The notes under the pieces are model-generated. The model saw nothing but the letters and a program-made list of their open reading frames with translations. It ran no database searches and was not told the origin of the DNA. Made by a program: the position numbers and the translations under genes. 64,000 nucleotides of DNA from Nitrosopumilus sp. GTDB taxonomy: Archaea; Thermoproteota; Nitrososphaeria; Nitrososphaerales; Nitrosopumilaceae. Within the stretch, counting starts at the first letter, position 1, and each line of letters starts with the position of its first letter. This document shows positions 6,170 through 60,700 of this stretch, one piece after another. Location of the stretch: positions 1,536,001 to 1,600,000 of the forward strand of contig OZ252243.1 in NCBI GenBank assembly GCA_965249555.1. The letters are read 5' to 3'.

Positions 6170-6355
6170 GGTTATATATAGGCACAAATCACTTATAAGG
6201 ATATTGGATAATTGATCCATTTTGTTACAATACATGATCATTGTTTGGAAAAACATGTAATTTTTTTACTTTTTTAGATCATAATGAGTTTTTTCCATGA
6301 CTAGCTCTTCAATCCAAGGATTTAGAAACAAAAAAAGCAACATTATCTTAGAAAG

Positions 6356-15229: not shown

Positions 15230-15239
15230 GGGGGGGGGG
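15230..15239 (+). repeat. G10 homopolymer between tfb and sufC
   Basis: Ten consecutive G; reads C10-T5 just after the tfb stop on the minus strand. Confidence 0.85.
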
Positions 15240-27816: not shown

Positions 27817-28028
27817 TAATAACGCATTTTATCATACAGTCAACTCATCCTAAAACTGATCATTTTGTAAATATTTGATGATAATATGGATCTAACAACA
27901 CAAACATGTCTTCATGATTCATAAAGAAATGTCAGATGCTCAATGATACATATACTAGAACAATTTCAAAGTCAATTCATGGGGTGCAGGGAAATCTGTG
28001 TACAATATAAGGCAAAAAAACCGTATGT

Positions 28029-28395
28029 ATCCATGTGAATTGTTTTTATACATTTCCCACTTTTTTGCATCCCAAGGCATAGCCTTCGCTATGGAATGCT
28101 TTCAAACAAAAGATGACGGACATGTATCCATACGAGGTCTGTTCCTCAATGCTATCTTCATCCCTTTGTCAGGATTATTCGCAGTTATTACCCGAGGCTT
28201 GTCCCTCAACATCTAACACGCGACTTGCAGTCCTAACTGTAATTCTGTACAAATTCTCTCCTCTCTTTTAGCATCCAGTAAATCACTCGCAGGATCTTTG
28301 ATGATGTGGCAACTGCGGCCTTTGATGAACCTCTCTTCTTTTTAATGCGATTGTAAAATTTTGTAATGTCACTGTTCTTGGCATGTATTGTATGA
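28029..28395 (-). mobile_element. IS110/IS1111 remnant copy B (type-2 C-terminus, ncRNA region, right end)
   Basis: KNSDITKFYNRIKKKRGSSKAAVA...QNYS* followed by the shared tail ending AATTCACATGG-AT. Confidence 0.88.
28050..28235 (-). ncRNA. Bridge/seek-RNA-like region, copy B
   Basis: Two internal-loop domains, each capped by a GAGG-N6-CCTC hairpin; ends approximate. Confidence 0.65.
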
Positions 28396-28808: not shown

Positions 28809-28871
28809 ATGAACAAAGTATTATTCTCTGCGTTAATGGGTGGAGTGGGCTTGGCCTCATTTGTCATATAA
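28809..28871 (+). other. 20-codon leader ORF (MNKVLFSALMGGVGLASFVI*), out of frame with giant gene 1
   Basis: Read directly; conserved upstream of giant gene 2. Confidence 0.75.
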
Positions 28872-28878
28872 CTCACCC

Positions 28879-43800: not shown

Positions 43801-46800
43801 TCGGGATCTTTCTCATTTACAGTTACACTGACTGATGGTGAGAACTCATTCACTGCAACGGCGTCTGATGGACCAAACACATCTGCTGCATCATCACCTG
43901 TACTCATTACACTTGATACCATAGCACCAGCAGCTCCTGAAATTACCACCTCACCTGCAACTGTCAATACACCATCATTCACGATTGAAGGTACGGCTGA
44001 AGCCGGGACAACTGTAGAACTGCTCAAGGGAGGAACATCAACTGGTGATACAGTAACTGCTGATTCGGGATCTTTCTCATTTACAGTTACACTGACTAAG
44101 GGTGCCAACTCATTCACTGTAACAGCGTCTGATGGACCAAACACATCTGCATCATCATCACCTGTACTCATTACGCTTGATACCACAGCACCAGCAGTTC
44201 CTGAAATTACCACCTCACCTGCAACTGTCAATACACCATCAATCACGATTGATGGTACGGCTGAAGCTGGGTCAACTGTGGAACTGTTCCGTGGAGTAAC
44301 ATCTGTTGATACAGTAACTGCTGATTCGGGATCTTTCTCATTTACAGTTACACTGACTGATGGTGAGAACTCATTCACTGCAACGGCGTCTGATGGACCA
44401 AACACATCTGACGCATCATCACCTGTACTCATTACACTTGATACCATAGCACCAGCAGTTCCTGAAATTACCACCTCACCTGCAACTGTCAATACATCAT
44501 CATTCACGATTGAAGGTACGGCTGAAGCCGGGACAACTGTAGCACTGCTTAAGGGAGCAACATCAACTGGTGATACAGTAACTGCTGATTCAGGATCTTT
44601 CTCATTTACAGTTACACTGACTAAGGGTGCCAACTCATTCACTGTAACAGCGTCTGATGGACCAAACACATCTGCATCATCATCACCTGTACTCATTACG
44701 CTTGATACCACAGCACCAGCAGTTCCTGCAATTACCACACCACCTGCAACTGTCAATACACCATCAATCACGATTGATGGTACGGCTGAAGCTGGGTCAA
44801 CTGTGGAACTGTTCCGTGGAGTAACAACAGTTGATACAGTAACTGCTGATTCGGGATCTTTCTCATTTACAGTTACACTGACTGATGGTGAGAACTCATT
44901 CACTGCAACGGCGTCTGATGGACCAAACACATCTGCTGCATCACCAGCTATAGTCATTACACTTGATACCATACCACCGGAAGCTCCTGAAATTACCACC
45001 TCACCTGCAACTGTCAATACACCATCATTCACGATTGAAGGTACGGCTGAGGCCGGGACAACTGTAGCACTGCTCAAGGGAGCAACATCAACTGGTGATA
45101 CAGTAGCTGCTGATGGTGACGGGAATTTCTCATTTACAGTTACACTGACTGATGGTGAGAACTCGTTTACTGCAACGGCGTCTGATGGACCAAACACATC
45201 TGACGCATCACCAGCTATAGTCATTACACTTGATATCATAGCACCAGTAATCACAGTTGATAAAGATTCATTCTCCGTTGAACTTGGAGAAACATACACA
45301 GCATTCACCTATTCTGCAAATGATAACACTGACGGGGATATCACAGATAATGTAGTTGTTGGAGATACAGTTGATACCAGTGTAGATAATACTTACAATG
45401 TAACCTTTGATGTGGATGATGCGGCTGGAAACCATGCAGTAACAGTAACCAGGACAGTCACAGTTACACCTGATGCCACGGTGCCAACCATCACAGTCAA
45501 TGAGGATTCGCTCTCCGTCGAGCTTGGAGGAACGTACGAGCTATTCACCTTTACTGCAAATGATAATACTGACGGGATTATCACCGGTGAGGTAGCTGTT
45601 GCTGGATATCCAGCTGATACCGATACGATTGGAACCTATGATGTTACCTTTGATGTGGATGATGCGGCCGGAAACCATGCAGTAACAGTAACTAGAACAG
45701 TTACAGTTACAGCTGATACCACAGCACCATCTATCACAGTCAATGAGGAATCATTCTCCGTTGAACTTGGAGAAACATACACGCCATTCACCTTTACTGC
45801 AACTGATAATATTGATGGGGATATCTCAAGTAAGGTAACTGTTGGTGGGGATACAGTTGATACCGGTACGATTGGAACATATGATGTTACCTTTGATGTA
45901 GTTGATGCAGCTGGAAACCCTGCAGTTACAGTAACTAGAACAGTTACAGTTACAGATCCCGAAGCACCAACTCTACCTGATACAGAAAAACCAGTTATCA
46001 CACCAGCAGGATCTAGTGAAACAATTGAGTTAATTGCAACCAACACTTACACAGAACAAGGCGCTACTGTAGAAGATAATGACCTAGCCTACTCTGAAAC
46101 AGTAACAGTCTCTGGTGATACACCTGACACCAGTAGTATAGGAGAATACACCGTATTGTATGATGCACCAGATGATGCGGCAAATAACACACCAGACCAA
46201 AAATCAATTACAATTACCGTAGTTGATACCACAGCACCAACCTTTGATGTTGATGGTAACACAGGTGACTATTCCACTACAGTACCATTTGGCGAAACAT
46301 ACACCCCAGGTGTAATTGCCAATGCATTTGATATCTCAGGAACTGCACCTGGTATAGTTGGCGGTGAAACAGTCAATGTCGACACTTCTAGAGAATATGT
46401 TGTAACTTATACCGTAACTGACAACAATGGACAAGTCGCAACAATCACTGAAACTGTAACAGTAGAATCTGATATCACAGCACCAGCAGTTCCTGCAATT
46501 ACCACACCATCTGCAACTGTTGGCTCAACACCAATCACAATTGTTGGTACAGCTGAAATTGGGTCAACTGTGGAACTGTTCCGTGGAGGAACATCAGTTG
46601 ATACGACAACTGCCGATGGTTCAGGGAATTTCTCATTTACAGAAGTTGCACTAGATGAAGGTGAGAACTCTTTTACTGCAACGGCATCTGATGGAGTCAA
46701 CACATCTGCTGCATCACCATCTATAGTCATTACACTTGATACAACACCAGCTGGTGGCATCGCTAGTGTAACTCCTGGAACTGAAACACCAAAGAAAAAA

Positions 46801-47811
46801 GGTGGAGATTCTAATGAATGGAAAACAAAGCCAACCTTTGGCAAACATTGGAATAATCAAGCAGTACAGCTAGTTGATGACGGCTTTGTCTTTAATGGCA
46901 TGCCATTAACCATTACAAACAACTGGCACACTGACTTTAATATGACTAGCAGCATTATTGGTGAGGACAATACAGTCCACATCAAAGGCTATGCAACAAA
47001 TGACCTAAAGTCGGTATCCCTATCCCTTGGAGTTCCAGAAGTTGGCCTGAAAACTAATGCAGAGTCCCACATTATAGTGAATGTAAATAGCAACTATACC
47101 AGTCCTGCAGGCTATGACATTGCAGATATAGTCCATGAGCAAAGAGAGGGACTGGTAAATCAGAACATGACTGGTGCAACAATTAGTAAAGTCAAATGTA
47201 CCATATCAGATACTACAGAGAGGTGCTTTGATGTTACCATATCATTTGTAATAATGGCACCATTATCCCATGAAGTAATGGCAATTAATGCAGTTGACAA
47301 ACAACGTTATTCTACTACCACATATATCAACGAAGGTGTAGAGTTTACAGGAGAAGCATTACTTGCAGCAGCAACTCATGAGTTAAAACAAAAGCATGGC
47401 AACCAGAATCCGTTTGAGACCATATCACTGACACAGCAAGACAGACGTTACCAGGTCTGGGAGGACCAATATGGATACATATGGTCACAAAATGACTATG
47501 GCACCTGGTTGCAGATTACAAGACCTGATATACAACAAAGAGATGATTCGCCAACAAGCGTAATGACTAGAATTCATTCAAACTTTGCAAATCTGGTAAT
47601 TGATGAGCAGGATAGGGCAACTCTGATCTTTGATAGTAAGGCAATTCAGGGAACCTTGGATGAATCATTCTCATATGATATGCCATTAAGACTGGACAGG
47701 GTATCAGATCCCGCATTGCTGGAATCACTATCCATACAAGAGATGCTGGCCCAGGAGATGCTGTGTGACTGTATTATATATGATGACTCTGATTTTAGCT
47801 GGAACGACTAG
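28879..47811 (+). CDS. Giant secreted/surface protein 1 (about 6,310 aa; FN3, Ig-like Big- and DUF5011-type repeats, distinct C-terminal domain)
   Basis: Uninterrupted ORF; signal peptide ending SAEA; FN3 motifs (TLSW...Y...L.A.T.Y.Y); start uncertain (TTG 28879, GTG 28840, or fusion to ATG 28809). Confidence 0.93.
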   Translation: MQAIIRYPFLCLVFAALFAISLVLGSAEATQVTITPLTYVDGQTAIEPGSFNIIVDDSLRLTTTFVPRQAGDWRITSDGFDPLDGSVTQSEVNNNARLGDFNRQLSIGFEDDIVLFFKPSGASEFAKVASGNVGIVPDLPVLRVVGVTPTSITLEWDDVDGARGYHLFINAVAHITTDPSITFDELDPGTEYSIAAITTTIGSNAISARSAPLDVTTLAVTPLSATITYADDQTALAENIFAVILPSPGNAVNVWISPLEKGTLRFESSNIGKNVPVASGVDQTVARPLPHGDDNIVISSSGTEVARISITTELDPDEPVYAEEQTAIREGSLRYEPVVDGSSISVNFVPTDAGNFVFRYGDSTSTSIINKLGAEVTVGLPVGHDYDDDVIIEFGGVEAVRMHVTTPSEDGVSIQAGSFVVVDTINADALRVEFVPLKEGTFTVTAGDTSETVDVSAGDVSESTPKGTEITVGYEFDDNVILSFGGKDAARIHVTTGPTPLVPSAPSLRITGTTHDTVTLSWDAVHRADTYTLTRTLGSNPAVTVLSGIADLTFTDKNLAAETDYTYSLTAINSVGPSEPSEDTVTTDAAPTPPDTPTLVAGVTTHNTVSLSWDEPTGADSYILTRTAGTVIIEIPVTGGTHTDDALKSGVQYTYSIRAVSAIGASPDSNDVIVTTIPVPITPTTPTYTDGQTAIDESFGIILLGDGTAGVFFDATDDGKYHVGWGAETSTPITYEDGYSAYVVIPIGDYAGVVILFFDDNEVARQVVPAVISPIKDGTLSVTDDADGIITVSLTPAFAGTFSVSTNSLESEKIPGVPDTQIDITLDVGHGFAEDVLVSFNNIIVAGIFVTTVPDAPALVLGPVTSTSITLSWNSVDNADRYTLTRTADGTDVIIVSGNVLTFTDEGLAAGTNYVYAITATTPEGRTGAISAELAVDIGSAAESFGVIVDGDGASVSFTPLVPGDFTIGYGDDSANDVTISVATGKLSAKLTTIKVGYNFNGPVTLSLDNDIIGRILIVTEPPPTTLDATAVTDTSITLAWPPQPEVQEYRLYRNGALVVATGELSYTDTGLDSNTAYTYHIESHNDVSTTSDRSADLDVTTLIEPPRLVAGEITTTSVELTWDAVAGANDYVLYRDGVNIALVTGTTHKVTGLAAGTEYSFTAESRHLNFLTSPLSSPLSVRTVPDTPALRVTGTTFDTITLSWSPVNGAASYTLTRVVEGDDVTVFSGDALTATDENLSPATSYNYIITATTSGGTSAPSAEFAASTASAVPIITTSSQIVNTPSITIAGTAESGKTVELFQGETSAGTTTADGTGAFSFEVTLADGANSFTATASDGTDTSVPSSPIVITLDTEKPLITVLGSDETIELTAADTYAEPGATVEDNDPAYSEDVTVAGNTPDTSVIRVYTVTYNAPADAAGNEPDQQSITITVSDTTPPTFDVDGHTTNYATTVPFAGTYTQGIIANESDISGIASGTVGGKSVNVHVSAEYAVTYTVTDNNGQAATITETVTVGDDEEKPVITPLGSSETIIVSETDTYTEPDATVKDNDPAYSEDVTVAGDTPDTSVVGEYTVLYTAPADAAGNIPDEKSIVISIVDPPTSPPATIRTLSVSSTTHDSITLSWDAVATAASYTVTRIVDGGPDVEVASEITELTATDENLAADTTYKYTIKAINSAGASTSLEFSLNTAAIPAAPAAPVLSVTSTTDTTVSFSWGAVEGADSYTLTRVVADGSDVPVPTTPELTATDENLAPETSYNYIITATNAGGTTPSATFEATTSAPPAPATPVFSTVVSATHNSINLSWSAVAGADSYTLTRVAESGNNVRVFSGDALTFTNAGLDPDTAYNYIIMATNSAGTSEPSDQFTATTSTAPPTLVIHDTPTLVAGIITYNTVNLSWDEPAGADSYILTRTAGTDTTEIPVIGGTHADDTLEPTTQYTYSVKAVSASGDSADSNDVIATTIPVPILPTTPTYAVDQSAIVGTSFEIIRIDDDTITVSFDAINDGEYYVQWGESETSPTTITGGNSASVQIPIDDYAGVVILFFEDNEVARQQVPAVTSPIKDGTLSVTDDADGIITVSLTPAFAGTFSVGTHSLDSEKIPGVPDTTIVITLDVGHGFAEDVLVSFNNIIVAKVFVTTVPETPALVLGAVTGTSIALSWGSVDNADSYTLTRTADGTDVIIVSGNVLTFTDEGLAAGTNYVYAITATTPEGRTSATSADLAVTIGSAAQSFDVIADGDDASISFTPLVPGDFTIGYGDDSSNDITVTIASDEVDEPSTTPVTVGYNFNGPVTLSLDNDIIGRVLLVTEPPPTALDATAVTDTSIILAWPSQPEVQEYRLYRNGALVVATGELSYTDTGLAAETVYIYHIESHNDISTTSDQSANLIASTGSAAAPGTPAEIPAIESGSFGVTAGVDDATASFVPLRSGDFIIGYGTDQSVTVTIAGDALGKASTTTVPVGDGYDGPVTLTFDGEQVGTVPVRAGITNDTEKPVITPTGSTQTIELTAADTYTEPGATVKDNDPAYSEKVTVAGDTPDTSVIGEYTVLYNAPADAAGNEPDQQSIAITVSDTTPPAFDVDGHTTDYATTVPFAGTYTQGIIANESDISGIASSVVGGNSVDVNVPGQYAVTYTVTDGNEQVATITETVTVEPDAEKPVITPMGSTRTIELTATNTYAELGATVTDNDRDYSGTVTVTGDKPNTGAVGVYIVTYTAPADAAGNEPDPQSIVISVVDTPVPTGITYTEGQTAIEEGSLGYTLNDPGNTISVDFKPLKAGTYKFQYGVSFSNVQVSEAEIGENKRLLIHGIGYNYNADIVISLGSTEVASVSVATGPAPPVLSVGAVTDTSIAFSWGAVTGATHYNVYRDGIVQGRDIGVTSFADTGLTPGTEYAYHVIAFNGLAASASSNVESVTTTGTAPVTIPDTPTLSIVATTHNSIELSWTAVENADSYTLTRIVDGDDNVPVPTTDALSATDTGLSAATDYKYVITATNSDGTSDPSAEFDARTGDSPTYTIDHTLHIDGDKVVITFTSSHTDDFTIEFDGGRTIGFRIDDAAVPYIHTETVGYDYDGNVSIFLGLDEVAKLPVTTGSEPTVTAVRNADNSVTVSWSNIETSITNEYVLTISDGSSDSDTFTPSGASNQHTISTTRTIDLNDANEVCVKGVGVDNKICEPVPEAFDITAPVITVTGSDTTIELTATDTYTIPGATVADNDPNYSETVAVTGDTPDTSSIGVYTVLYDAPNDAAGNKPEQESITITVVDTTPPTFDVNGNTDDYSTAVPFGETYTPGAIANAFDISGIVSSDVGGDTVNVNTSRDYVVTYTVTDSNGRTTTITETVTVGPDVTAPAVPEITTSPATVNTPSFTIDGTAEAGTTVALFNGGTSVDTVIADSGSFSFTVTLTEGENSFTVTASDGPNTSDASPAIVITLDTIPPEAPIITTPPATVNTPSFTIEGTAEAGTTVALFNGVTPAGTTTADGSGNFSFTVTLTDGENAFTATASDGPNTSDASPAIVITLDTIPPEAPEITTSPATVNTPSFTIEGTAEAGTTVELLKGGTSTGDTVAADGDGNFSFTVTLTDGENSFTATASDGPNTSAASPAIVITLDTIPPEAPEITTSPATVNTSSFTIEGTAEAGTTVALLKGATSTGDTVTADSGSFSFTVTLTDGENSFTATASDGPNTSASSSPVLITLDTTAPAVPAITTPPATVNTPSITIDGTAEAGSTVELFRGVTTVDTVTADSGSFSFTVTLTDGENSFTATASDGPNTSDASSPVLITLDTIAPAVPEITTSPATVNTSSFTIDGTAEAGSTVELFRGVTSVDTVTADSGSFSFTVTLTDGENSFTATASDGPNTSDASSPVLITLDTIPPEAPEITTSPATVNTPSFTIDGTAEAGTTVALLKGATSTGDTVAADSGSFSFTVTLTDGENSFTATASDGPNTSDASSPVLITLDTIAPAVPEITTSPATVNTSSFTIEGTAEAGTTVALLKGATSTGDTVTADSGSFSFTVTLTKGANSFTVTASDGPNTSASSSPVLITLDTTAPAVPAITTPPATVNTPSITIDGTAEAGSTVELFRGVTTVDTVTADSGSFSFTVTLTDGENSFTATASDGPNTSAASPAIVITLDTIPPEAPEITTSPATVNTPSFTIEGTAEAGTTVALLKGATSTGDTVTADSGSFSFTVTLTKGANSFTVTASDGPNTSASSSPVLITLDTTAPAVPAITTPPATVNTPSITIDGTAEAGSTVELFRGVTSVDTVTADSGSFSFTVTLTDGENSFTATASDGPNTSAASPAIVITLDTIPPEAPEITTSPATVNTPSITIDGTAEAGSTVELFRGVTSVDTVTADSGSFSFTVTLTDGENSFTATASDGPNTSDASSPVLITLDTIAPAVPEITTSPATVNTSSFTIEGTAEAGTTVALLKGATSTGDTVTADSGSFSFTVTLTKGANSFTVTASDGPNTSASSSPVLITLDTTAPAVPAITTPPATVNTPSFTIDGTAEAGSTVELFRGVTTVDTVTADSGSFSFTVTLTDGENSFTATASDGPNTSAASPAIVITLDTIPPEAPEITTSPATVNTPSFTIEGTAEAGTTVALLKGATSTGDTVTADSGSFSFTVTLTKGANSFTVTASDGPNTSASSSPVLITLDTTAPAVPAITTPPATVNTPSITIDGTAEAGSTVELFRGVTSVDTVTADSGSFSFTVTLTDGENSFTATASDGPNTSAASPAIVITLDTIPPEAPEITTSPATVNTPSFTIEGTAEAGTTVALLKGATSTGDTVAADGDGNFSFTVTLTKGANSFTVTASDGPNTSASSSPVLITLDTTAPAVPAITTPPATVNTPSITIDGTAEAGTTVELLKGGTSTGDTVAADGDGNFSFTVTLTDGENSFTATASDGPNTSAASPAIVITLDTIPPEAPEITTSPATVNTSSFTIEGTAEAGTTVALLKGATSTGDTVTADSGSFSFTVTLTDGENSFTATASDGPNTSAASSPVLITLDTIAPAAPEITTSPATVNTPSFTIEGTAEAGTTVELLKGGTSTGDTVTADSGSFSFTVTLTKGANSFTVTASDGPNTSASSSPVLITLDTTAPAVPEITTSPATVNTPSITIDGTAEAGSTVELFRGVTSVDTVTADSGSFSFTVTLTDGENSFTATASDGPNTSDASSPVLITLDTIAPAVPEITTSPATVNTSSFTIEGTAEAGTTVALLKGATSTGDTVTADSGSFSFTVTLTKGANSFTVTASDGPNTSASSSPVLITLDTTAPAVPAITTPPATVNTPSITIDGTAEAGSTVELFRGVTTVDTVTADSGSFSFTVTLTDGENSFTATASDGPNTSAASPAIVITLDTIPPEAPEITTSPATVNTPSFTIEGTAEAGTTVALLKGATSTGDTVAADGDGNFSFTVTLTDGENSFTATASDGPNTSDASPAIVITLDIIAPVITVDKDSFSVELGETYTAFTYSANDNTDGDITDNVVVGDTVDTSVDNTYNVTFDVDDAAGNHAVTVTRTVTVTPDATVPTITVNEDSLSVELGGTYELFTFTANDNTDGIITGEVAVAGYPADTDTIGTYDVTFDVDDAAGNHAVTVTRTVTVTADTTAPSITVNEESFSVELGETYTPFTFTATDNIDGDISSKVTVGGDTVDTGTIGTYDVTFDVVDAAGNPAVTVTRTVTVTDPEAPTLPDTEKPVITPAGSSETIELIATNTYTEQGATVEDNDLAYSETVTVSGDTPDTSSIGEYTVLYDAPDDAANNTPDQKSITITVVDTTAPTFDVDGNTGDYSTTVPFGETYTPGVIANAFDISGTAPGIVGGETVNVDTSREYVVTYTVTDNNGQVATITETVTVESDITAPAVPAITTPSATVGSTPITIVGTAEIGSTVELFRGGTSVDTTTADGSGNFSFTEVALDEGENSFTATASDGVNTSAASPSIVITLDTTPAGGIASVTPGTETPKKKGGDSNEWKTKPTFGKHWNNQAVQLVDDGFVFNGMPLTITNNWHTDFNMTSSIIGEDNTVHIKGYATNDLKSVSLSLGVPEVGLKTNAESHIIVNVNSNYTSPAGYDIADIVHEQREGLVNQNMTGATISKVKCTISDTTERCFDVTISFVIMAPLSHEVMAINAVDKQRYSTTTYINEGVEFTGEALLAAATHELKQKHGNQNPFETISLTQQDRRYQVWEDQYGYIWSQNDYGTWLQITRPDIQQRDDSPTSVMTRIHSNFANLVIDEQDRATLIFDSKAIQGTLDESFSYDMPLRLDRVSDPALLESLSIQEMLAQEMLCDCIIYDDSDFSWND
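30660..36037 (+). repeat. Internal ~1.5-kb duplication in giant gene 1 (about 30660-32165 vs 34528-36037)
   Basis: DTPTLVAG...SPIKDGTLSVTDDADG...QPEVQEYRLYRNG occurs twice, with long identical DNA runs. Confidence 0.88.
38920..45240 (+). repeat. Tandem array of 24 Ig-like units of 261-267 bp
   Basis: GATGGACCAAACACATCT recurs 24 times from about 39127 to 45184 at 261, 264 or 267 bp spacing. Confidence 0.93.
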
Positions 47812-48041
47812 GTTCCGTCACATATTTGAGAATTATATGTAATTAGGTTATTGGGTATCTACTGCCCCTAGATTATCATGGAATATTTTACAAAAACAAT
47901 GGATGGATTTTGTATCATTTGCAAAAACAATCCCTGATGAATTATTAATACAATTCCTGGAATCAAAATATGCCAAGAATCCTTCCCGTACTTTTTGCAA
48001 AAATAAAACTCTCTGTACCAAAGGCAGAGACAAAATGAGAT

Positions 48042-48631
48042 GGCATATCTGAGATGTCCTGATTCAGCAAAACACACTAGGAGGTGTCCTCAGTAGGGTT
48101 GGAGACGATTTCGTATGGGAGATTCAATGACTCTCACAAGTTATGCGCATATGCAGGAGTCGTGCCATCAGTTAGAAACTCTGCAGACACGGTTACACCA
48201 TGGTCGTATAACCAAAAGGGGAAGCATGACACTACGATGGGTTCTTACCCAATGTGTCCATGCCCATGCACTACATGTCAAGAACAGTGACATTACAAAA
48301 TTTTACAATCGCATTAAAAAGAAGAGAGGTTCATCAAAAGATATAGTTGCTGCATCATCAAAGATCCTGCGAGTGATTTACTGGATGCTAAAAGAGAGGA
48401 GAGAATTTGTACAGAATTACAGTTAGGACTGCAAGTCGCGTAATGATTTTTGAGGAACAAGCCTCGTCAACTAACTGCGGATAGATCCTAACGAAGGGAT
48501 GAAGATAGCATTGAGGTTAAAGCCTCGTATGGATACATGTCCGTCATCTTTTGATTGAAAACCTTCTCTAGCGAAAGATATGCCTTGGGATGCCAAAAAG
48601 TGGGAAATGTATAAAAACAATTCACATGGAT
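48042..48631 (+). mobile_element. IS110/IS1111 remnant copy C
   Basis: Homologous to copy A from GGCATATCTGAGATG; frameshifted YAGVVPSVRNSA / GRITKRGS fragment; right end AATTCACATGG-AT at 48631. Confidence 0.9.
48424..48600 (+). ncRNA. Bridge/seek-RNA-like region, copy C
   Basis: Same two-domain scaffold as copy B; AGATAGCAT at 48503-48511 and ATGGAT at 48529-48534. Confidence 0.65.
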
Positions 48632-48644
48632 ACCCCTTTAATGC

Positions 48645-48675: not shown

Positions 48676-48738
48676 ATGAGCAAGGTTTTATTCTCTGCGT
48701 TAATGGGGGGGAGTGGCTTGGCCTCATTTGTCATATAA
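48676..48738 (+). other. 20-codon leader ORF (MSKVLFSALMGGSGLASFVI*) containing a G7 tract
   Basis: Read directly; G run at 48705-48711. Confidence 0.75.
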
Positions 48739-48745
48739 CCCACCC

Positions 48746-51700
48746 TTGCAGGCAGTTAACATGCATTCATTTCTCTGCCTCGCATTTGCGTCGCTGCTTG
48801 CCGTATCCCTAGTCCTTGGAAGTGCCGAGGCCTTCCCAGTCATCATCACACCGTCAACTTATGTAGATGGTCAGACGGCAATTAAGCCAGGCTCTTTTAA
48901 CATTACAGTGGATGACAGCCTTCGTCTAACTGCGACCTTTGTTCCGCGGCAAGCCGGTGATTGGAGGATTACGTCTGATGTTCTTGATCATATTGTTCCT
49001 ATTGTTCCTATTGATGGCAGTGTTGCTCAATCTCAGGTGGATAGTGGTAACCCTTTAGAGGTTAACAGACAACTGAGTGTTGGTTTTTCTGGCCATATCG
49101 TTCTTTCCTTCAAACCCAGTGGGGCTAGTGAATTTGCAAAAGTTGCAAGTGGACTCGTGCTGATTCATCCTAATCCACCTGTACTCAGGGTGGCAGGTGT
49201 CACTCCAACGTCTATAACACTTGAATGGGATGATGTGGATGGTGCTATTTCATACACGGTCTGGATAGATGGAAATGATTCAGAACGTACCACTGATGCA
49301 TCAATCACTTTTGATGAATTAGATCCTGGAACAGAGTACCGTTTTATTTCCCGATCATCAGCTGGTTTACTTACTAGTGTTATCTCTGCTCCGTTGGATG
49401 TAACCACGTTGGCTGTAACTCCCTTGTCTGCAACAATAACTTATGCAGATGACCAGACGGCACTTGCCGAAAACATTTTCGCCGTTATACTGCCTTTCCC
49501 GGGAAATGAGGTAAATGTGTGGATTTCACCGCTAGAGACTGGCACACTTAGATTTGAATCTGGTAATAGTGGGAAGAATGTCCCGGTTGTTTCAGGTGAG
49601 GATCAGACTGTTACAAGGCCGCTGCTTCATGGTGATGATAATATTGTCATTTCATCAGACGGTACAGAAGTTGCAAGGATATCTATAACGACTGAGCTGG
49701 ATCCTGACGAACCAGTTTATGCAGAAGGGCAGGCGGCAATCCGGGAAGGCTCTTTACGTTATGAGCTGGCTGGAAATGGTAGCATAAATGTGCACTTTGT
49801 GCCAACAGAAGCCGGCAACTTTGTATTTAGACATGGCGGCTCTGCTGCCAGCATTTTTGTTACTAACTTGGGTGCAAAAGTAACAATCATCTTCCCCGTA
49901 GGTCATGATTATGATGATGATGTTATTGTTGAATTAGACGACGTAAAAGCTGCAAGGATGAATGTAGTGACCCCGCCTGAAGACGGCGTACCAATCCAAG
50001 CAGGCTCGTTTGTGATTACTGATACGATAAATGCAGACGCATTACGCGTGGAATTTGTACCGTTAAAGGAAGGCACATTTACGGTTACGGCAGGTGATAC
50101 AAGTGAGACAGTTGACGTCTCAGCTGGGGATGTATCGGAATCAACACCAAAAGGGACTGAAATAACAGTCGGGTATGAATTTGATGATAATGTCATCCTT
50201 TCATTTGGAGGCAAGGATGCTGCAAGGATACATGTGACGACCGGACCCACACCACTCGTACCTTCAGCGCCATCGCTTAGAATTACAGGTACCACTCATG
50301 ACACTGTAACGCTCTCATGGGATGCAGTACATCGTGCCGACACCTACACCCTGACCCGAACCCTTGGAAGCAACCCTGCTGTAACGGTGCTATCTGGAAT
50401 CGCTGACCTGACTTTTACTGATAAGAACCTGGCTGCCGAAACCGATTACACGTATTCCCTTACGGCGATAAATTCTGTCGGGCCAAGCGAACCTTCCGAG
50501 GATACTGTAACCACTGATGCTGCCCCAACTCCACCCGATACCCCGACACTTGTCGCGGGAGTAACCACCCATAATACCGTCAGCCTCTCATGGAACGAAC
50601 CGACAGATGCCGACAGATACATACTGACCAGGACTGCCGGCACGGTGATAACTGAGATACCGGTCACCGGGGGAACGCACACTGACGATGCCTTGAAATC
50701 TGGAGTACAATACACCTATTCAATAAGGGCAGTGTCTGCAATTGGAGCCAGTGCCGATTCTAATGATGTCACTGTAGATACAATCAAGGTACCTGTACTA
50801 TCTACCACGCCAACTTACATAGACGGCCAGTCTGCAATCGATGAAACTTTTGAGATTACCATAGTTGATGATAATACCATAGCAGTATCCTTTGATGCCA
50901 AAGTTGACGGGGAATATTATGTGGTATGGGGAGACTCACAGACCAGCCCTGCTAGTATAGTCGGCGGTAACAGTGCAAATGTCGAAATTATTATTGACAA
51001 CTATGACGGCGCGATCATCCTTTTCTTTGACATTGATGGGGATGTGGATGATGAAGATCAAGAGATTGGAAGTCAAGAGGTTGCAAGGCAAGTGGTACCT
51101 GCCGTGATAAGCCCGATCAAAGACGGTACCCTGTCAGTCACTGATGATGCAGACGGGATCATAACCGTATCACTTACGCCGGCATTTGCCGGCACGTTTT
51201 CTGTCAGCACCAATTCCCTAGAGTCTGAAAAAATTCCCGGCGTACCTGATACCCAGATAGATATTACCCTGGATGTCGGACATGGCTTTGCCGAGGATGT
51301 CCTTGTCTCATTCAATAATATTATAGTTGCAGGGATATTTGTAACGACCGTCCCTGATGCCCCGGCACTTGTTCTGGGGCCCGTCACCAGCACCAGCATC
51401 ACCCTCTCATGGAATTCGGTGGATAATGCCGACAGCTACACCCTGACCCGAATCGTTGCAGACGGTGATGATGTGACAGTGTTCTCAGGTGATGCACTGA
51501 CTGCCACTGATGACAACCTGAGTCCTGATGCAGAGTACAGGTATGCCATTACGGCGACAACTCCTGAGGGCAGAACAGGCGCTATATCTGCAGAGCTTGC
51601 AGTTGATATTGGCTCTGCTGTAGAATCCTTTGGCGTCATAGTGGACGGTGATGGTGCATCCGTATCCTTTACACCGCTAGTACCTGGTGATTTCACGGTT

Positions 51701-54700
51701 GGATACGGCGATGATCCAGACAATGATGTTCCAATCTCTGTCGCGCCTGGCAAGTTGTCTGCAAAACTAACCGCGATAAAGGTCGGCTATAATTTTAACG
51801 GCCCGGTCACCCTCTCCCTTGATAATGATATTATTGGCAGGATATTGATAGTCACCGAGCCTCCTCCTACCACGCTTGATGCAACGGCAGTCACCGATAC
51901 GAGCATCACCCTTGCATGGCCTTCACAGCCCGAGGTCCAGGAATACAGGCTGTACAGGAACGGCGCCCTCGTAGTTGCTACTGGCGAGCTGTCCTACACT
52001 GACACCGGACTGGATTCTAACACAGCTTACACTTATCACATCGAGTCACACAATGACGTCTCCACAACAAGTGACCGGTCTGCAGATTTGGATGTAACTA
52101 CGCTTATAGAGCCACCCAGACTTGTGGCAGGGGAGATCACCACTACAAGCGTAGAGCTTACATGGGATGCAGTAGACGGTGCTCATGACTATTTCCTGTA
52201 CCGAGATGGAGTAGATATAGCATCAGTTACTGGCACAACGCACAAGGTCACTGAACTGGCTGCCGGAACGGAATATTCCTTTACTGCCGAGTCACGTAGC
52301 ATTGATTCTGTGACAAGCCCGCTATCATCACCGCTATCCGTAAGGACCGTCCCTGACACTCCGGCACTCCGTGTTACGGGTACTACTTTTGACACTATAA
52401 CATTATCATGGGGCCCGGTAAATGGTGCCGCAAGCTATACTCTGACCCGGGTTGTCGAAGGTGATGATGTGACGGTGTTCTCAGGCGACGCACTGACTGC
52501 CACTGATGAGAACCTGAGCCCTGCAACATCCTACAATTATATAATTACGGCTACAACTTCTGGCGGGACAAGCGCTCCCTCTGCCGAGTTTGCCGCAAGT
52601 ACTGCATCGGCAGTTCCTATAATCACAACATCATCTCAAATTGTCAATACGCCATCAATCACGATTGCCGGTACAGCTGAATCTGGGAAAACAGTGGAAC
52701 TATTCCAGGGAGAAACATCAGCTGGTACGACAACTGCCGATGGAACAGGCGCCTTCTCATTTGAAGTTACGCTGGCTGATGGTGCCAACTCTTTCACTGC
52801 AACGGCATCTGATGGAACCGATACGTCTGCACCATCATCACCTGTAGTCATTACACTTGATACTGAAAAACCGTTAATCACGGTATTAGGTTCTGATGAA
52901 ACAATAGAGCTGACTGCAGCCGACACTTACGCCGAACCTGGCGCCACCGTAGAAGATAATGACCCTGCTTACTCTGAGGACGTGACAGTTGCAGGCAATA
53001 CCCCTGACACCAGCGTTATAAGAGTATACACCGTAACGTATAATGCACCAGCTGATGCGGCAGGCAACGAGCCGGACCAACAGTCAATTGTAATTACCGT
53101 ATCTGACACCACCCCTCCGACCTTTGACGTTGATACTAACACGGATGACTATTCCACACTGGTGCCGTTTGCAGGAACATACACCCAAGGTATAATTACC
53201 AATGCATTTGATATCTCAGGAATTGCATCTGGCACAGTTGGCGGCGAATCAGTAAACGTTCATGTCTCAGCAGAGTATGCCGTAACTTACACTGTAACTG
53301 ACAACAATGGACAGGCCGCAACAATCACTGAAACCGTTACGGTAGAGGATGATGAAGAAAAGCCAGTAATTACACCATTAGGATCTAGTGAGACAATCAT
53401 AGTATCTGAAACCGACACTTACACGGAACCTGGCGCCACTGTAAAAGATAATGACCCAACTTACGCTGGAACCGTAACAGTTGCAGGTGATACTCCTGAC
53501 ACCAGTGTTGTAGGGGAATACACCGTAACATATACTGCACCACCTGATGCGGCAGGCAACATACCCGATGAAAAATCAATTGTAATTTCCATAGTCGATC
53601 CCCCAACTTCCCCGCCTGCCACCATTCGAACACTCAGCGTTTCATCTACTACCCATGACAGCATCACCCTCTCGTGGGATGCAGTGGCCACTGCCGCAAG
53701 TTACACCGTGACCCGAATCGTTAATGGCGGTGCCAATGATGTTGAAGTGTTCTCAGGTGACGCATTGACTGCCACTGATGAGGGCCTGGCCCCCGAAACA
53801 ACGTACAGGTATACCATCACGGCAACAAATTCTGCCGGGTCAAGTACCTCTCTGGAGTTCTCTCTAAATACTGCTGCGATACCAGCCGCACCTGCGGCAC
53901 CCGTACTTTCTGTAACCTCTGCCACTGATACAACCGTATCATTCTCATGGGGTGCAGTGGAGGGTGCCGACAGCTACACCCTGACCCGGGTCGTTGCAGA
54001 CGGTTCTGACGTGCCGGTGCCGACAACCCCTGAACTTACTGCCACTGATGAGAACCTGGCCCCCGAAACATCTTACAATTATATAATTACGGCGACAAAT
54101 GCCGGCGGGACAACCCCTTCTGCCACGTTTGAGGCAACCACGTCTGCTCCACCTGCGCCTGCCACTCCCGTATTCAGCACTGTTGTATCTGCCACTCATA
54201 ACAGCATAAATCTCTCATGGAGTGCAGTGGCCGGTGCCGACAGCTACACGCTGACCAGGGTCGCTGAGAGCGGCAACAATGTCAGGGTGTTCTCAGGTGA
54301 CGCACTGACTTTTACCAATGCCGGACTGGATCCTGATACAGCTTACAATTATATCATTATGGCAACAAACTCTGCAGGTACAAGTGAACCATCTGACCCG
54401 TTTACTGCAACTACATCTACTGCGCCTCCAACCCTTGTTATACATGATACCCCCACACTTGTTACCGGAATAATCACCTATAATACCGTCAGCCTCTCAT
54501 GGGGTGAATCGACTGGCGCCGACAGCTATATCCTGACCAGGACTGCCGGCACAGACACAGTAGAGATACCAGTCACTGGGGGTACCACTGTATCATACAC
54601 CGATGATGACGTGAAACCCTCCACAACTTACACCTATTCCATAAAGGCAGTGTCTGCATCTGGAGACAGTGCCGATTCTAATGATGTCATCGCAACCACG

Positions 54701-57700
54701 ATTCCGGTACCCATACTGTCTACCACGCCAACTTATGCCGTCGACCAGTCTGCAATCGTTGGAACCTCTTTTGAGATTATCAGAATTGATGATGATACCA
54801 TAACAGTATCCTTTGATGCCATCAATGACGGGGAATATTATGCCCAGTGGGGAGAATCAGAGACTAGCCCCACTACCATAACAGGTGGCAACAGTGCATC
54901 TGTCCAAATTCCTATTGGCGACTATGCCGGCGTTGTCATCTTGTTCTTTGAGGATAACGAGGTTGCAAGGCAGCAGGTACCTGCCGTAACAAGCCCGATC
55001 AAAGACGGTACTCTGTCAGTCACTGATGATGCAGACGGAATCATAACCGTATCACTTACACCGGCATTTGCCGGCGCATTTTCTGTCGGCACCCATTCCC
55101 TGGATTCTGAAAAAATTCTCGGCGTACCGGATACCACGATAGTGATTACCCTGTATGTTGGCCATGGCTTTGCCGAGAATGTCTTTGTCTCATTCAATAA
55201 CATTATAGTTGCAAGGGTATTCGTAACGACTGTCCCTGAGACCCCGGCGCTTGTCCTTGGAGCCGTCACCGATACCAGCATTGCTCTTTCATGGGGTTCG
55301 GTGGATAATGCCGATAGATACACCCTGACCAGAACCGCTGATGGCACTGATGTAATAATAGTATCAGGCAACGTATTGACTTTCACTGATGAGGGTCTTG
55401 CTGCCGGAACCAATTACGTGTATGCCATTACGGCGACAACGCCTGAGGGCAGAACAAGTGCCACTTCTGCAGATCTTGCAGTGACTATCGGCTCTGCTGC
55501 GCAATCCTTTGACGTCATAGCAGACGGTGATGATGCATCCATATCCTTTACACCGCTAGTACCTGGCGATTTCACGATTGGATACGGCGATGATTCATCT
55601 AATGATATTGATGTCCCCATTGCAGCCGAGGATGTAGGTGAACCATCGACTAGCACGGTGCAAGTCGGCTATAATTTTAACGGCCCGGTCACCCTCTCCC
55701 TTGATAATGATATTATTGGCAGGATATTGATAGTCACCGAGCCTCCTCCTACCACACTTGATGCAACGGCAGTCACCGATACGAGCATCACTCTTGCATG
55801 GTCTTCACAGCTTGATGTCCATGAATATCAGCTGTACAGGAACGGCGCCCTCGTAGTTGCTACTGGCGAGCTGTCCTACACTGACACCGGACTGGCTGCT
55901 GCAACGGTTTACACTTATCACATCGAGTCGCATAATGATGTCTCCACAACAAGTGACCGATCTGCAGATTTGGATGTAACTACGCTTATAGAGCCACCCA
56001 GACTTGTGGCAGGGGAGATCACCACTACAAGCGTAGAGCTTACATGGGATGCAGTAGACGGTGCCCATGACTATTTCCTGTACCGAGATGGAGTAGATAT
56101 AGCATCAGTTACTGGCACAACGCACAAGGTCACTGAACTGGCTGCCGGAACGGAATATTCCTTTACTGCCGAGTCACGTAGCATTGATTCTGTGACAAGC
56201 CCGCTATCATCACCGCTATCCGTAAGGACCGTCCCTGACACTCCGGCACTCCGTGTTACGGGTACTACTTTTGACACTATAACATTATCATGGAGCCCGG
56301 TAAATGGTGCCGCAAGCTATACTCTGACCCGGGTTGTCGAAGGTGATGATGTGACGGTGTTCTCAGGCGACGCACTGACTGCCACTGATGAGAACCTGAG
56401 CCCTGCAACATCCTACAATTATATAATTACGGCTACAACTTCTGGCGGGACAAGCGCTCCCTCTGCCGAGTTTGCCGCAAGTACTGCATCGGCAGTTCCT
56501 ATAATCACCACATCATCTCAAATTGTCAATACGCCATCAATCACGATTGCCGGTACAACTGAATCTGGGAAAACAGTGGAACTATTCCAGGGAGAAACAT
56601 CAGCTGGTACGACAACTGCCGATGGAACAGGCAATTTTTCATTTGAAGTTACGCTGGCTGATGGTGCCAACTCTTTCACTGCAACGGCATCTGATGGAAC
56701 CGATACGTCTGCACCATCATCACCTGTAGTCATTACACTTGATACCATACCACCAATCATCACAGTTGATCCTCTTACCGTTACACTACCAGCCGGTTCA
56801 TCACAACCTGACTTGCTTGCCGGAGTCTCAACTGATGACAATTCCCCAGTCACTACAACTGGAACCGTTAATGTCAACACGCCAGGCGATTACACTATCA
56901 CTTATGATTCCACTGACGGTACAAATGCGGCTGTATCTGCAACCAGGACATACGCGGTAACTGCAATGCTTGAACCGTTTGTAACGGTTGTAAGAAATGA
57001 TGATAATTCCATCACGGTAACCTGGCGTGATATAGAAACTGACGATGGCACATATTTTGCTGTCGTTGAAAATACAAACAGTGATGAACTGGTCATGGTT
57101 GGTACGGGTCTGACCGGCAATTCCCACACTTTTTCTGATGCTAATCGTCTTGCATCACTAAATGAGGGCGATAGAATCGGGATATCTGGCAGTACTGATG
57201 GCAGCATCAATCTTGACACCCTGACATTTGTTGACACGGAAAAACCAGTAATCACGGTATTAGGATCTAGTGACACAATAGATGTATCTGAAATCAACAC
57301 TTACACTGTACCTGATGCCACTGTAACTGACAATGACCCTGCCTACTTTGAAGAAGTAGCAGTTTCTGGCGATACGCCTGACACCAGTGTTATAGGAGTA
57401 TACACCGTAACATATACTGCGCCAGCCGATGCGGCAGGCAACAAACCGGACCCACAATCAGTTGTAATTTCTGTGGTTGATCCCTCGATATCAATCGGAA
57501 TAACTTACACGGAAGGCCAGACGGCAATCGAGGAAGGCTCTTTTAGTGTTTTAGTAGATAGTGTTTTTACTGACAAAGTATTTGTACGATTTGAGCCCAA
57601 AAATAAAGGCACATACACTGCTATATTGGACGGAGTAACCAGAACTGTCCTTGTTACAGAATTCACTATAGATAACCGAGCAGACATCCCATTTGATTAT

Positions 57701-60700
57701 GAGGATTCCTATATTGGTAATATCGTCCTATCATTTGACGATAAGGAAGTTGCAAGGCAGACTGTAATGACTGGACCTGCACCTGATACTATAGCACCAC
57801 CAGTTCCTATAATTACCACATCATCTGAAACTGTCGGCTTATTCCCAATCATAATTGAAGGCGGTTCGACCGAATCCGGGGCAACCGTAGAACTATTCAA
57901 TGGAGGAACATCAGTTGGTACGACAACTGCCGATGGTTCAGGGAATTTCTCATTTACAGTAGTTGTACTGACTGAGGGTGCCAACTCTTTTACTGCAACG
58001 GCGTCTGATGGACCAAACACATCTGAAGCATCACCAGCTGTAGTCATTACACTTGATACCGAAAAGCCAGTAATCACGGTATTAGGATCCAGTGAGACAA
58101 TCAAGGTATCAGAAACCAACACTTACACAGAACGGGGCGCCACTGTGGATGATAATGACCCAGCTTACTCTGGAATAATAACAGTTACAGGCAATATCCC
58201 TGACACCCGCGTTGTAGGGAAATACACCGTAACATATACTGCGCCAGCTGATGCAGCAGGTAATGCACCGGACCAACAATCAATCATAATTACCGTAAAT
58301 GACTCTGGAGAAGATACGACACCCCCGGTAATCGCAGTAGATCCTCCTACCGTCACGCTGCCAGCTGGTTTGCCGCAACCTGACTTGACTGCCGGAGTCT
58401 CAACTGATGACAATTCCCCAGTTGTTACATCTGGAACCGTTAATACCATCAGGCCAGGCAATTACACTGTCACTTATGATTCTACAGATGCATCAGGCAA
58501 TGACGCAGTATCTGCAATCAGGACATACACGGTATCTGCTCCGGAGTACGCCCTCACCAGTGCTCCTCATGCTGACGGGGACAAGGTAATTCTAACCTTC
58601 ACATCCTCAAAGTCCGGTGATTTCACACTTGAACGCGCCGGCAGCAGTCCGGTTGACTTTGCAATTGAGGAAGGACGCACAGCGGAAACTATCACGGAAG
58701 CAGTCGGGTATGATTATGCTGGAGATATTATAATCTCAATTAGATACGGTGCCGAGGTTGCAAGGGTATCTGTAACGACAGGACCTGCGCTAATTGTGAC
58801 TGCGGTAAGAAGTCCGGACAATGCCGTCACCCTGACCTGGAGTAACATACTTGGGGCAGATTATGCCATTTATGTGGTTGAAGGCGGCGTGAATGTCAAA
58901 TTTACCGACTCTGCCAGCCCGTATCATATTACCATTCCTGAGGAACTTGCCCGGGTGGATGACAGTGAGGGCAATCAGATTGGCGTGGCCGGCATCACTG
59001 ATGGTGTATCTGGCGAGATAACATTTACAACAGTACCGCCCAAGACTCCCGCACTTGATTTCACGTCCACTGGTACAGGCATAACGCTCTCATGGGATGC
59101 AGTGAACGGTGCCGACAGCTACACCGTGACCCGGGTCACTGAGAGCGGCAATGCTGATGTGCCAATAACCGGACTGACTGCCACTGATGAGAGCTTGACT
59201 GCTGGAACAGAGTACAGGTATACCATTACGTCAACGTCCGGGGAACTGACAAGTCATCCTTCTGCCCAGTTTGCCGCAACCACTCTTGCTGCGCCTCAAA
59301 CAGTGCCAACTTACGCCCCTGACCAGACGGCAATCAAGGCAGGCTCTTTCAAGGTTGAGATCAGTCCCACTGCTACATTAGTAACATTTCTTCCCCTCAT
59401 GCCAGGCGATTACACTGTCACGTTGACTGACTTGCCGCCCAAAACTAGAACCTTTACGTCAGGTGATACGGGTGAAATACTATCTTATGTATTTAATCTT
59501 GAGAATCATCTTACTGGCGATATTGCCTTGTCATTTGACGGTGTCAATGTCGTAACGCATACCGTAACGATTGGCCCGCCCACACTTGGGACAGGAGACA
59601 TCACTGATACGAGCATTCGGATTGAATGGGATTCGGTGAATGATAACGCGGATTATGCCCTGTTCAGAATTGCTGACGACAATTTTGGTATAGAACTGGA
59701 AACAACCGCTAAATTGACTGCCACTGATAAGAACCTGGCTGCCGATACAGGGTACACCTATGCCGTTAGGGCAGCAGTTGGGGCAACAAGTGTTCTTTCT
59801 GACAGGTTTGATGCAAGGACTGCCGTAATACCTGATGACACACCGCCAGTAATCACTGCAAATCCCCGTACCGTCACGCTGCCTGCCGGTTCGCCGCAGC
59901 CTGACCTGCTTGCCGGAGTCACGACTGATGACGGTTCCCCAGTCACTGCATCCGGAGCTGTCAATACCGACACGCCCCGCAATTACGTTATCATTTATGA
60001 TTCTGCAGATGCATCAGGCAATGCAGCAGACCCCGTAACTAGAATATACGCGGTAACTATAGTACTCGAACCGTTTGTAACAGTCGTAAGAAATGATGAT
60101 AATTCCATCACGGTAATTTGGCGTGATATAGAAACTAGCGATGGTACATATTCTGTCGTTTTTAAAAATCCAAACAGTAGTCTGGCGTTCCTGATTAGGA
60201 CTGGTCTGACCGGCAATTCCCATACTTTTTCTGATGCTGCCAGTATTGCATCACTAAATAAGGCCGATAGGATCGGAGTATCTGATGGTGCTGGTGGCAG
60301 CATCAATTTTGACACCCTGACATATACTGATGCAGAAAAACCGGTAATCACGGTATTGGGATCTACTCAAACAATAGATCTGACTGCAACTGACACTTAT
60401 GCCGAACCTGGCGCCACTGTGGATGATAATGACCCGGATTACTCTGAGGAAGTGACAGTTACAGGCGATACCCCTGACACCAGCGTTATAGGGGAATATA
60501 CCGTATTGTATAATGCGCCAGCTGATGTGGCAGGCAACATACCGGATGAAAAATCAATCGTAATTACCATATCTGATATCACCCCGCCAACCTTTGACGT
60601 TGACGGCAACACGGATGACTATTCCACTAGAATACCGTTTGGCGGAACATACGCCCCGGGTAAAATTGCCAATAAATCTGACATCTCAGGAATTGCATCT

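Follow-up and report, generated by a model that had tools for sequence, protein, structure and literature searches.

Two giant genes that lie in tandem in a genome of Nitrosopumilus sp., here called A and B, have diverged in a mosaic manner, with long stretches of perfect identity alternating with patches in which differences are dense. They were studied in a window of 64,000 nucleotides (nt), by which the whole stretch of DNA that was analysed is meant (assembly GCA_965249555.1, contig OZ252243.1, positions 1,536,001-1,600,000, forward strand); all coordinates given below are positions in this window unless they are marked as genome C1. The explanation that we regard as probable, though with real room for doubt, is that A and B belong, as tandem neighbours, to a lineage-specific family of giant secreted proteins, that the mosaic combines sequence exchange in the stalks of these proteins with selection at their tips, and that the family would form a repertoire similar to that of contingency loci.

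An earlier, sequence-only reading of the window had proposed diversifying selection plus gene conversion on the exposed binding faces of FN3 domains, resembling antigenic variation in an archaeon. In the analysis reported here, gene conversion between the two genes is well supported, and selection at the tip, for which support is moderate, appears to act in other domains than had been supposed. The genome is a single contig of 2.23 Mb and 99.97% complete. Archaeal amoA was found in it, and the gene for aIF5A lies directly upstream of A; the host is therefore an ammonia-oxidising archaeon, so that this part of the earlier proposal is borne out.

Identical tracts and divergent patches

Both genes are giant reading frames on the + strand. 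The product of A consists of a signal peptide, X and FN3 domains, Ig-like domains, a 24-copy tandem array and a conserved C-terminal family domain, and the complete frame of B (7128 amino acids, aa) ends at genome C1:1606090. At the N-terminus of B the order is signal peptide, X1, FN3-1, X2, X3, X4, FN3, FN3, and so on. The two genes are collinear for about 2400 codons, beyond which their architectures diverge, and the codon alignment on which the comparison is based has 2447 columns. Identity is 88% between nt 9-2316 of A and nt 3-2319 of B, and 95% between nt 2323-7199 of A and nt 2365-7253 of B. The features needed to follow the comparison are listed here, where dS and dN stand for synonymous and non-synonymous divergence and omega for the ratio dN/dS.

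28840..47811, + strand: gene A, 6323 aa (open reading frame (ORF), translation, Pfam fn3 and Bact_surface_Ig-like, family C-terminus)
48713..64000 and past the window end, + strand: gene B, paralog of A (ORF, translation, whole frame)
48833..50050, + strand: mature N-terminal region of B (X1, FN3-1, X2, X3, start of X4), counterpart in A 28966-30174; dS about 0.07, no donor elsewhere
48992..49009, + strand: doubled 9-bp unit ATTGTTCCT, in B only, adding IVPIVP
50051..50552, + strand: identical 503-nt tract, the same as A 30175-30676; double depth in public-run contigs
50747..51082, + strand: divergent patch at columns 686-793, dS 0.4-0.6; both versions 77-79% identical to the repeat unit 34740-35037 and 70% to each other
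51425..51547, + strand: divergent patch at columns 912-948; the A version matches B 55307-55426 at 100% and A 35380-35499 at 99% identity
52169..52354, + strand: AVDGAHDYF and SRSIDSVT patches; the B versions are 98-100% identical to the B repeat 56051-56236, the A versions have no closer copy

Differences between A and B number 540 over 7239 ungapped aligned bases. The longest identical tracts, of 503, 477, 291 and 290 nt, alternate with dense difference patches, and eight identical runs reach at least 181 nt, a length that none of 2000 random placements of the 540 differences attained (maximum 180). Of 1293 four-fold degenerate sites, 72 differ; the longest stretch without a difference spans 149 of these sites (attained in 42 of 5000 shuffles), and the differences are clumped, with a variance/mean ratio in bins of 1.95.

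The individual observations that had drawn attention to the pair were reproduced. More specifically, within the first ~45 mature codons there are five replacements, namely T>I (ACC/ATC), L>S (CTA/TCA), E>K (GAG/AAG), I>T (ATA/ACA) and T>A (ACG/GCG), and no silent change; the 9-bp unit occurs twice in B, with the two additional IVP triplets, and is lacking in A; the stretches said to be swapped are indeed so (ARGYHLFINAV-AHI / AISYTVWIDGNDSER and SRHLNFLT / SRSIDSVT); and the tract described as essentially identical over about 540 bp proved to be perfectly identical over 503 nt. By itself, the stretch with five replacements is not significant (four single-difference codons, silent to replacement S0:N4, p=0.26). 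The characterization of the patches as almost purely non-synonymous suits the first ~450 codons only (S13:N70) and fails for the rest of the alignment (S80:N97; Fisher p=2e-6), and over 48830-52330, the range to which the earlier observation referred, the Nei-Gojobori omega is 1.04.

Judged by the over-long identical tracts, the heterogeneous dS and the presence of identifiable donors, A and B are paralogs under concerted evolution by gene conversion, as had been proposed. Patches downstream of about column 620 have a dS of 0.3-0.6 and a dN/dS of 0.2-0.8 in the sliding window, and in 10 of the 12 (nine clear cases and a marginal one) the version of one gene or of both is more similar to a sequence elsewhere in the genome than to its counterpart in the other gene. 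For the N-terminal patches a better donor in the genome was found in none of five cases (Fisher p=0.003 for the contrast with the downstream patches). At columns 912-948, where the A version recurs almost unchanged in both genes, the B version shares 86% identity with a different gene of the family. The SRSIDSVT stretch of B has a 100% match in B's own repeat at 56168-56236, and is thus templated or shared rather than newly diversified in B. With donors elsewhere, a dS of 0.3-0.6 and a dN/dS below 1, the downstream patches were imported by exchange among repeats and not diversified; the sequence-only reading had itself named a dN/dS at or below 1 in the patches as speaking against diversification, and downstream its proposal lapses. 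Across columns 452-619, 9.6 synonymous differences are expected at the proportion of synonymous differences (pS) of the N-terminal region, while at most one is seen (P=7e-4), so the identical tract is younger than the N-terminal region.

Genes of this length, rich in repeats, could arguably have been given a mosaic appearance by chimeric or collapsed assembly. Contigs from three public runs bear on this; all three runs come from the same study, and it may be that the assembly was itself built from them. In them the unique pieces of B recur with 0 differences, depth is double in the identical tract, and 15 of 16 'other letters' are alleles of paralog A. Therefore, both copies exist as assembled and the mosaic is no assembly artefact; the genome being one nearly complete contig, an explanation of this kind is hardly credible.

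Probable selection at the N-terminal tip

Over columns 42-451 (399 codons) the pairwise omega under GY94 is 2.45, and a likelihood ratio test against omega=1 gives p=2e-4 with F3x4 and 8e-6 with equal codon frequencies; in the columns outside 42-451, omega is 0.62-0.76. The Nei-Gojobori omega of the N-terminal region is 2.10, with a bootstrap confidence interval (CI) of 1.41-3.42. Multi-nucleotide artefacts cannot affect codons with a single differing base, and among these codons 23.3 silent differences would be expected in the region instead of the 13 that accompany the 70 replacements (p=0.006). By domain, the values are as follows.

X1: omega 8.0, p=0.005
FN3-1: omega 1.6, p=0.2
X2: omega 3.4, p=0.17
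X3: omega 3.8, p=0.006
N-terminus without FN3-1: omega 3.58, p=9e-5

These values suggest, with moderate support, that the tip signal is carried mainly by the X domains X1 and X3. FN3-1 instead has the look of an island that is older or was imported: two or three changes fall in each of 19 among its 36 differing codons, and its dS is 0.14-0.23. Twenty-six of the 31 changed residues of FN3-1 fall in the C-C' and F-FG-G stretches. According to a proxy made from secondary structure and family conservation, changed sites lie at more variable family columns (p=0.03-0.05), with p=0.78 and p=0.31 for depletion from the core, which leaves the exposed binding faces of the earlier proposal conjectural. 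Diversifying selection, which the sequence-only reading had extended to the patches in general, can consequently be upheld for the N-terminal ~400 mature codons only, and neither for the downstream patches nor for FN3-1.

When the third paralog is used as an outgroup, 14 changes are placed in the B lineage and 13 in the A lineage, and 18 are unassigned. As far as can be judged from their codons, two other paralog pairs of the family repeat the pattern of tip versus rest. In the pair G9/G10, X1 is identical and the first FN3 that follows has S0:N15 in single-difference codons (omega 4.9, p=0.009); in G3/G8, columns 0-100 have S2:N18 (p=0.05); and a post hoc block in G10/G11 has S0:N15. Combined over three pairs, the single-difference codons give p=2e-4. 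Eight FN3 columns are changed in all three pairs where 2.5 are expected (P=0.001), a count to which low constraint could contribute and which is inflated by indel misalignment in G9/G10. Taken together, positive selection at the tip, with about twice as many recent amino-acid changes as the neutral prediction and in both lineages, is moderately supported.

The family, its domains and its poly-G leaders

In the N-terminal 2400 aa of each gene there are 13 fn3 stretches (Pfam PF00041; E 3e-67 and 3e-71), and Bact_surface_Ig-like domains are found by Pfam within the same N-terminal 2400 residues of both A and B. Together with the seven-strand sandwich fold of the model, the significant profile match makes A and B FN3 proteins by the usual definition. 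Interspersed with these is the X domain of about 85 aa, which has no Pfam family and of which an iterated profile found 84 copies, spread over 13 long frames (consensus AI..GSF....D...V.F.PL..G.F.I..G); copies lie at 28981-29283, 29551-30384, 48848-50260 and at least 70 further places. In the AlphaFold2 model X is also a seven-strand beta-sandwich (predicted local distance difference test, pLDDT, 94.6), and a Foldseek comparison of this model with the PDB returned only generic FN3 and CBM31 sandwiches (best TM-scores 0.5-0.58, E >= 0.016). Two domains of the tip of B are placed as follows.

49160..49435, + strand: FN3-1 of B, AlphaFold2 model with pLDDT 95.0 and seven strands
49706..49990, + strand: X3 of B, an X copy with omega 3.8 (p=0.006)

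The tandem array of A (38922-45247) comprises 24 copies of a 264-bp unit, with 88% matches, and encodes Ig-like (Big_13-like) domains. Antisense to it runs a stop-free frame of 2152 aa (38850-45308), which is most likely a by-product of the tandem repeat.

The family consists of 11 full-length genes (1579-11434 aa), which end in a common C-terminal domain of about 350 aa, and of one truncated copy. In A this domain lies at 46759-47808, and there are ten further copies in the genome. No Pfam match was found in the last ~350 aa, no usable match in the Atlas and no sequence match in the PDB below E=0.39. The domain has no hydrophobic tail, its omega of 0.2-0.4 indicates purifying selection, and that it is a cell-proximal anchor would be a guess. 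Identity is 91-97% among the copies of this genome and at most 55% with any other species searched; being far more alike within the genome than between species, the domain tells the same story of exchange at the scale of the genome. Open frames of at least 1500 aa take up about 8.3% of the genome, and most of this DNA belongs to the giant surface-protein family. One member is a frame of 11434 aa (genome C1 674714-709018, - strand), and in a relative (G146:C1 near 1482676-1538800) a frame of 18731 aa has the same C-terminal domain at its end. In a short member at genome C1 1336955-1339144 (725-730 aa) an in-frame TAG cuts the C-terminal domain, and the leader is without a G run; it is probably a decaying copy.

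Between species, the two ends of the proteins have had different histories. Of 150 other genomes of the genus, 42 have the C-terminal domain, frequently with many copies and as part of giant frames, whereas the N-terminal 520 aa were found in none of the 150 (E <= 1e-6) and in none of 40 relatives. The family is thus of long standing within the genus, and the parts that it carries as passengers are replaced fast. The N-terminal 520 aa were also absent from two contig collections, of metagenome and genome contigs, and in a collection of 5.8 billion proteins, covered for proteins of 841-2400 aa, the best match has 59% identity over 59% of the query; this match seems to be the third paralog of the genome itself. 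In the main texts of open-access papers, literature on giant or variable surface proteins of Nitrosopumilus or of ammonia oxidisers contained no description of the family, and literature on archaeal phase variation no such switch in ammonia oxidisers.

The giant genes have a GC content of 0.41-0.51 against a genome background of ~0.33. Most of the rise is at codon positions 1-2 (0.52-0.53, versus 0.41 in other long genes), and GC at third positions (GC3) is 0.34-0.35, versus 0.23 in other long genes. Between A and B lie two repeated elements.

47812..48122, + strand: 3' flank of gene A, common to family genes, 84-97% identical to at least five other flanks
48120..48633 (in some copies back to 48042), no strand assigned: dispersed repeat of ~514 bp, found more than 20 times in the genome (88-93% identity)

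An inverted copy of the ~514-bp repeat lies upstream of A at 28027-28394, and copies thus flank both A and B. The repeat contains an ORF of 103 aa (48115-48426) with a weak match to IS110-type transposases (E=1e-3, below the cut-off).

The starts of the family genes have a common layout, in which a TTTATAA element ~30 nt before the start codon is followed by ten codons, a run of G and the hydrophobic core of the signal peptide. All 12 family genes have a hydrophobic signal sequence of their own, and eight have the TTTATAA element, which, going by general knowledge of archaeal promoters, may be the promoter of a leaderless transcript. The whole genome contains 10 G/C runs of at least 9 (0.5 expected), and seven of these lie shortly behind the start codon, in leaders of the family. 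The seven leader runs are 10-12 long and lie in signal-peptide codons, one of them in a leader remnant without a gene. Long simple repeats thus occur near the starts of these surface genes, within the coding region, much more often than chance would allow, as is characteristic of contingency loci. The leader features are listed below.

genome C1 499852-62, 708997-709008, 1798981-91, 1833927-37, 2133085-94, 2178472-83 and 46418-28: leader G runs; 46418-28 is in the gene-less remnant leader, upstream of a 6348-aa gene
48676..48712, + strand: leader of B, with the promoter-proximal ATG at 48676 and seven G (G7) at 48705-48711; the ATG frame ends after 20 codons
28809..28845, + strand: leader of A, with ATG at 28809 and an interrupted G run (GGGTGGAGTGGG); the ATG frame ends after 20 codons

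Five of the leaders are identical apart from the length of the run, which is 11 in genes G3, G8 and G9 (all in frame), 10 in gene G10 and 12 in gene G11 (both out of frame). The gene of 11434 aa has a run of 12 and reads into TGA. In B, removing one G would fuse the ATG frame with the giant frame, and its G7 was confirmed in the contigs of the 3 public runs. The giant frame of A begins with GTG at 28840, out of frame with the family ATG. It is plausible from these comparisons that run length decides the frame between paralogs with identical leaders, assembly error being a possible source of the differences except in the G7 of B. The likeness to antigenic variation, which had been suggested before the leaders were known, gains unplanned support from these tracts. 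One of three long G/C runs outside the family, a G10 at 15230-15239 (C10 on the coding strand of its neighbours), lies ~85 nt upstream of the start of a putative ABC ATPase gene (14376-15146, - strand) and adjoins a putative TFB-like gene (15247-16197, - strand).

Explanations and related systems

The mechanism that we favour can be described in a few steps. Each family protein consists of a Sec-type signal peptide, a stalk of FN3, Ig-like and X domains, and a C-terminal domain under purifying selection. Non-reciprocal homologous exchange among the two genes, their internal repeats and other family members keeps rewriting the stalk, a step that is visible in the sequences themselves, and leaves behind both the identical tracts and the patches with better copies elsewhere. 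The tip (X1, FN3-1, X2, X3), presumably distal, would be pushed apart by selection, or held apart by it against homogenisation. The outcome may be a repertoire similar to contingency loci, where run length switches genes, conversion shuffles stalks and tips diversify, with viruses, grazers, partners or surfaces as candidate selective agents.

A number of results weigh against this account, some concerning the tip and others the leaders. When codons within five of a gap are dropped, the N-terminal omega falls to 1.93 (CI 1.20-3.51) and the single-difference codons to S12:N52 (p=0.06). The FN3 stretch that had been singled out from the sequence as a diversified binding surface is not significant, and the changed sites of FN3-1 are not depleted from hydrophobic-core columns (6/31 vs 10/61, p=0.78). 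Each comparison involves two sequences only, the omega signal is moderate, and block boundaries were chosen after the sliding window had been seen; if the block in G3/G8 is drawn slightly differently, its omega becomes 1.03. As regards the leaders, the G run of A is interrupted, and in A, B and gene G5 translation could start at a GTG that directly follows the run. The leader with its G run occurs in 0 of the 150 other genomes of the genus, and among the 5' ends of 15 family genes from three relatives there is no G/C run of at least 7; with the pattern not found in relatives, the switch reading, plausible in itself, rests on one assembly. Errors in homopolymer length are common in assemblies, and it is the G7 of B alone that was checked against run contigs. 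The run contigs list no run-length or single-base variants and no indels, rare variants being invisible there.

Some of these points would also fit a history in which conversion were the only process, homogenising the genes, and the N-terminal excess came from relaxed constraint together with bias (composition, multi-nucleotide changes and the post hoc choice of the block). This is the alternative that deserves most attention, even if it is unlikely. It would account for the weaker tip signal near gaps, with its single-difference p of 0.06, and for the 30 of 113 differing N-terminal codons that have two or three changes; a GC of 0.52 at positions 1-2 against a GC3 of 0.34, in a genome of ~33%, could by our own estimate inflate dN by ~20%; and A and B, being out of frame with the family ATG, could be poorly expressed. 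Relaxed constraint, however, cannot lift omega above 1, and both the full and the trimmed CI exclude 1. The single-difference codons of the region are significant on their own, two other paralog pairs have the same pattern, and the frames of 6323 and 7128 codons are intact. Selection without a race is also conceivable, in that the tips could have adapted once after duplication to two fixed ligands, such as substrata or partner cells, the divergence now being simply kept up in the face of conversion, without any arms race or phase variation. The symmetry of the changes across both lineages, the lack of variants in the run contigs and the lack of poly-G leaders in relatives would fit such a specialisation. 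It is nevertheless improbable given that several independent family pairs have the same pattern, that the N-terminal parts turn over wholly within the genus and that G runs of 10-12 are situated exactly in the leaders.

The N-terminal patches might themselves be imports, brought in by recombination with other strains from diverged alleles or genes that are absent here. FN3-1, with its block-like differences, its many multi-nucleotide codons and its higher dS, has the appearance of such an import, and the dispersed mobile repeat on either side of A and B could be seen in the same light. Outside FN3-1, however, the differences are mostly scattered single-base replacements at a dS of 0.03-0.09, where diverged donors would have added silent changes, and no donor was found in the genome, the genus, the two contig collections or the 841-2400-aa range of the protein collection. 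As an explanation of the tip as a whole, importation seems to us very improbable. Exchange in the stalks with selection at the tips thus keeps its place as the preferred explanation. A bolder form of it, in which the family is the first contingency system of several loci to be described in an archaeon that is free-living and chemolithoautotrophic, with 11 poly-G-switched giant genes, conversion-shuffled stalks and tips racing against viruses or grazers, is offered tentatively, as a possibility and not as an expectation.

Known systems of variable surface proteins provide a frame for these results. The opa genes of Neisseria form a multigene family of surface proteins in which a slippage-prone repeat in the signal-peptide codons sets the frame, recombination between loci generates mosaics and the exposed parts are hypervariable. 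The likeness to the giant family is one of logic, in that here too a repeat lies in signal-peptide codons, copies are mosaic and the parts that are presumably exposed vary. Opa proteins, however, are small outer-membrane barrels of a human pathogen with CTCTT pentamers, while the present proteins have 1600-11400 aa, poly-G tracts and a chemolithoautotrophic archaeon as host; there is no sequence or fold relationship, and the length differences of the runs are known between paralogs only. In the pilE/pilS and vlsE systems, mosaic surface proteins arise via non-reciprocal copying between related sequences, which is the point of likeness, from a single expression site and promoterless cassettes, which is the point of difference. 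A silent-cassette system was excluded here, as there are 11 full-length genes and one truncated copy with a promoter-like element, leader and 3' flank of their own. Almost purely amino-acid-changing patches in a ligand-binding protein are also the product of diversity-generating retroelements. These were excluded as well: a six-frame search of the genome gave no RVT_1 match (control genomes were positive), there is no template repeat, and the spectrum is not adenine-specific but dominated by transitions of all four kinds.

The closest system in terms of gene type is Giant1-5 of Apilactobacillus kunkeei, described as consecutive genes for giant extracellular proteins of 3000-8000 aa that make up 6% of a 1.5-Mb genome (PMC12863079). 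The passages on these genes report a putative N-terminal binding domain and a strongly mosaic divergence, put down to short intragenic recombination, so that the likeness lies in consecutive giant genes, an N-terminal binding part and mosaic divergence (PMC12863079). The differences are that the Giant proteins are bacterial and made of beta-solenoid and alpha-helical repeats instead of FN3, X and Ig-like domains, that their dS is reported to be 4-8 times dN, that is, purifying, whereas dN exceeds dS in the N-terminal domains here, and that a homopolymer switch is not mentioned in the passages on the system (PMC12863079). In archaea, a hypervariable module of Thermococcales with a large protein of Ig-like domains has been proposed to serve in conflicts or in self/non-self recognition (PMC8416519). 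According to the part of that paper concerned with the module, it has variable downstream genes and was compared between species, whereas the present case concerns paralogs within a genome, with conversion, an omega above 1 and poly-G leaders (PMC8416519). A review of phase variation from 2025 states, in the passages on its distribution, that genomes with many such loci seem restricted to pathogens and commensals, and refers to archaea only as ground for the future (PMC11868660).

There is a practical lesson for the analysis of repeat-rich paralogs, which is that dense non-synonymous patches are mostly imports, and that a low dS and the lack of a donor are needed before selection can be argued. 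For the organism, the family combines three classic signs of variable surface proteins, namely (i) copying between members, (ii) an excess of amino-acid changes at the tip and (iii) slippage-prone starts. Ammonia-oxidising archaea are among the most abundant microbes of sea and soil, and their dealings with viruses, grazers and surfaces are little understood. If the switch reading is true, the organism would be a culturable test case outside the setting of pathogens and commensals, and its giant proteins would be an archaeal counterpart to the antigenic variation of bacteria, without a relation of host and pathogen.

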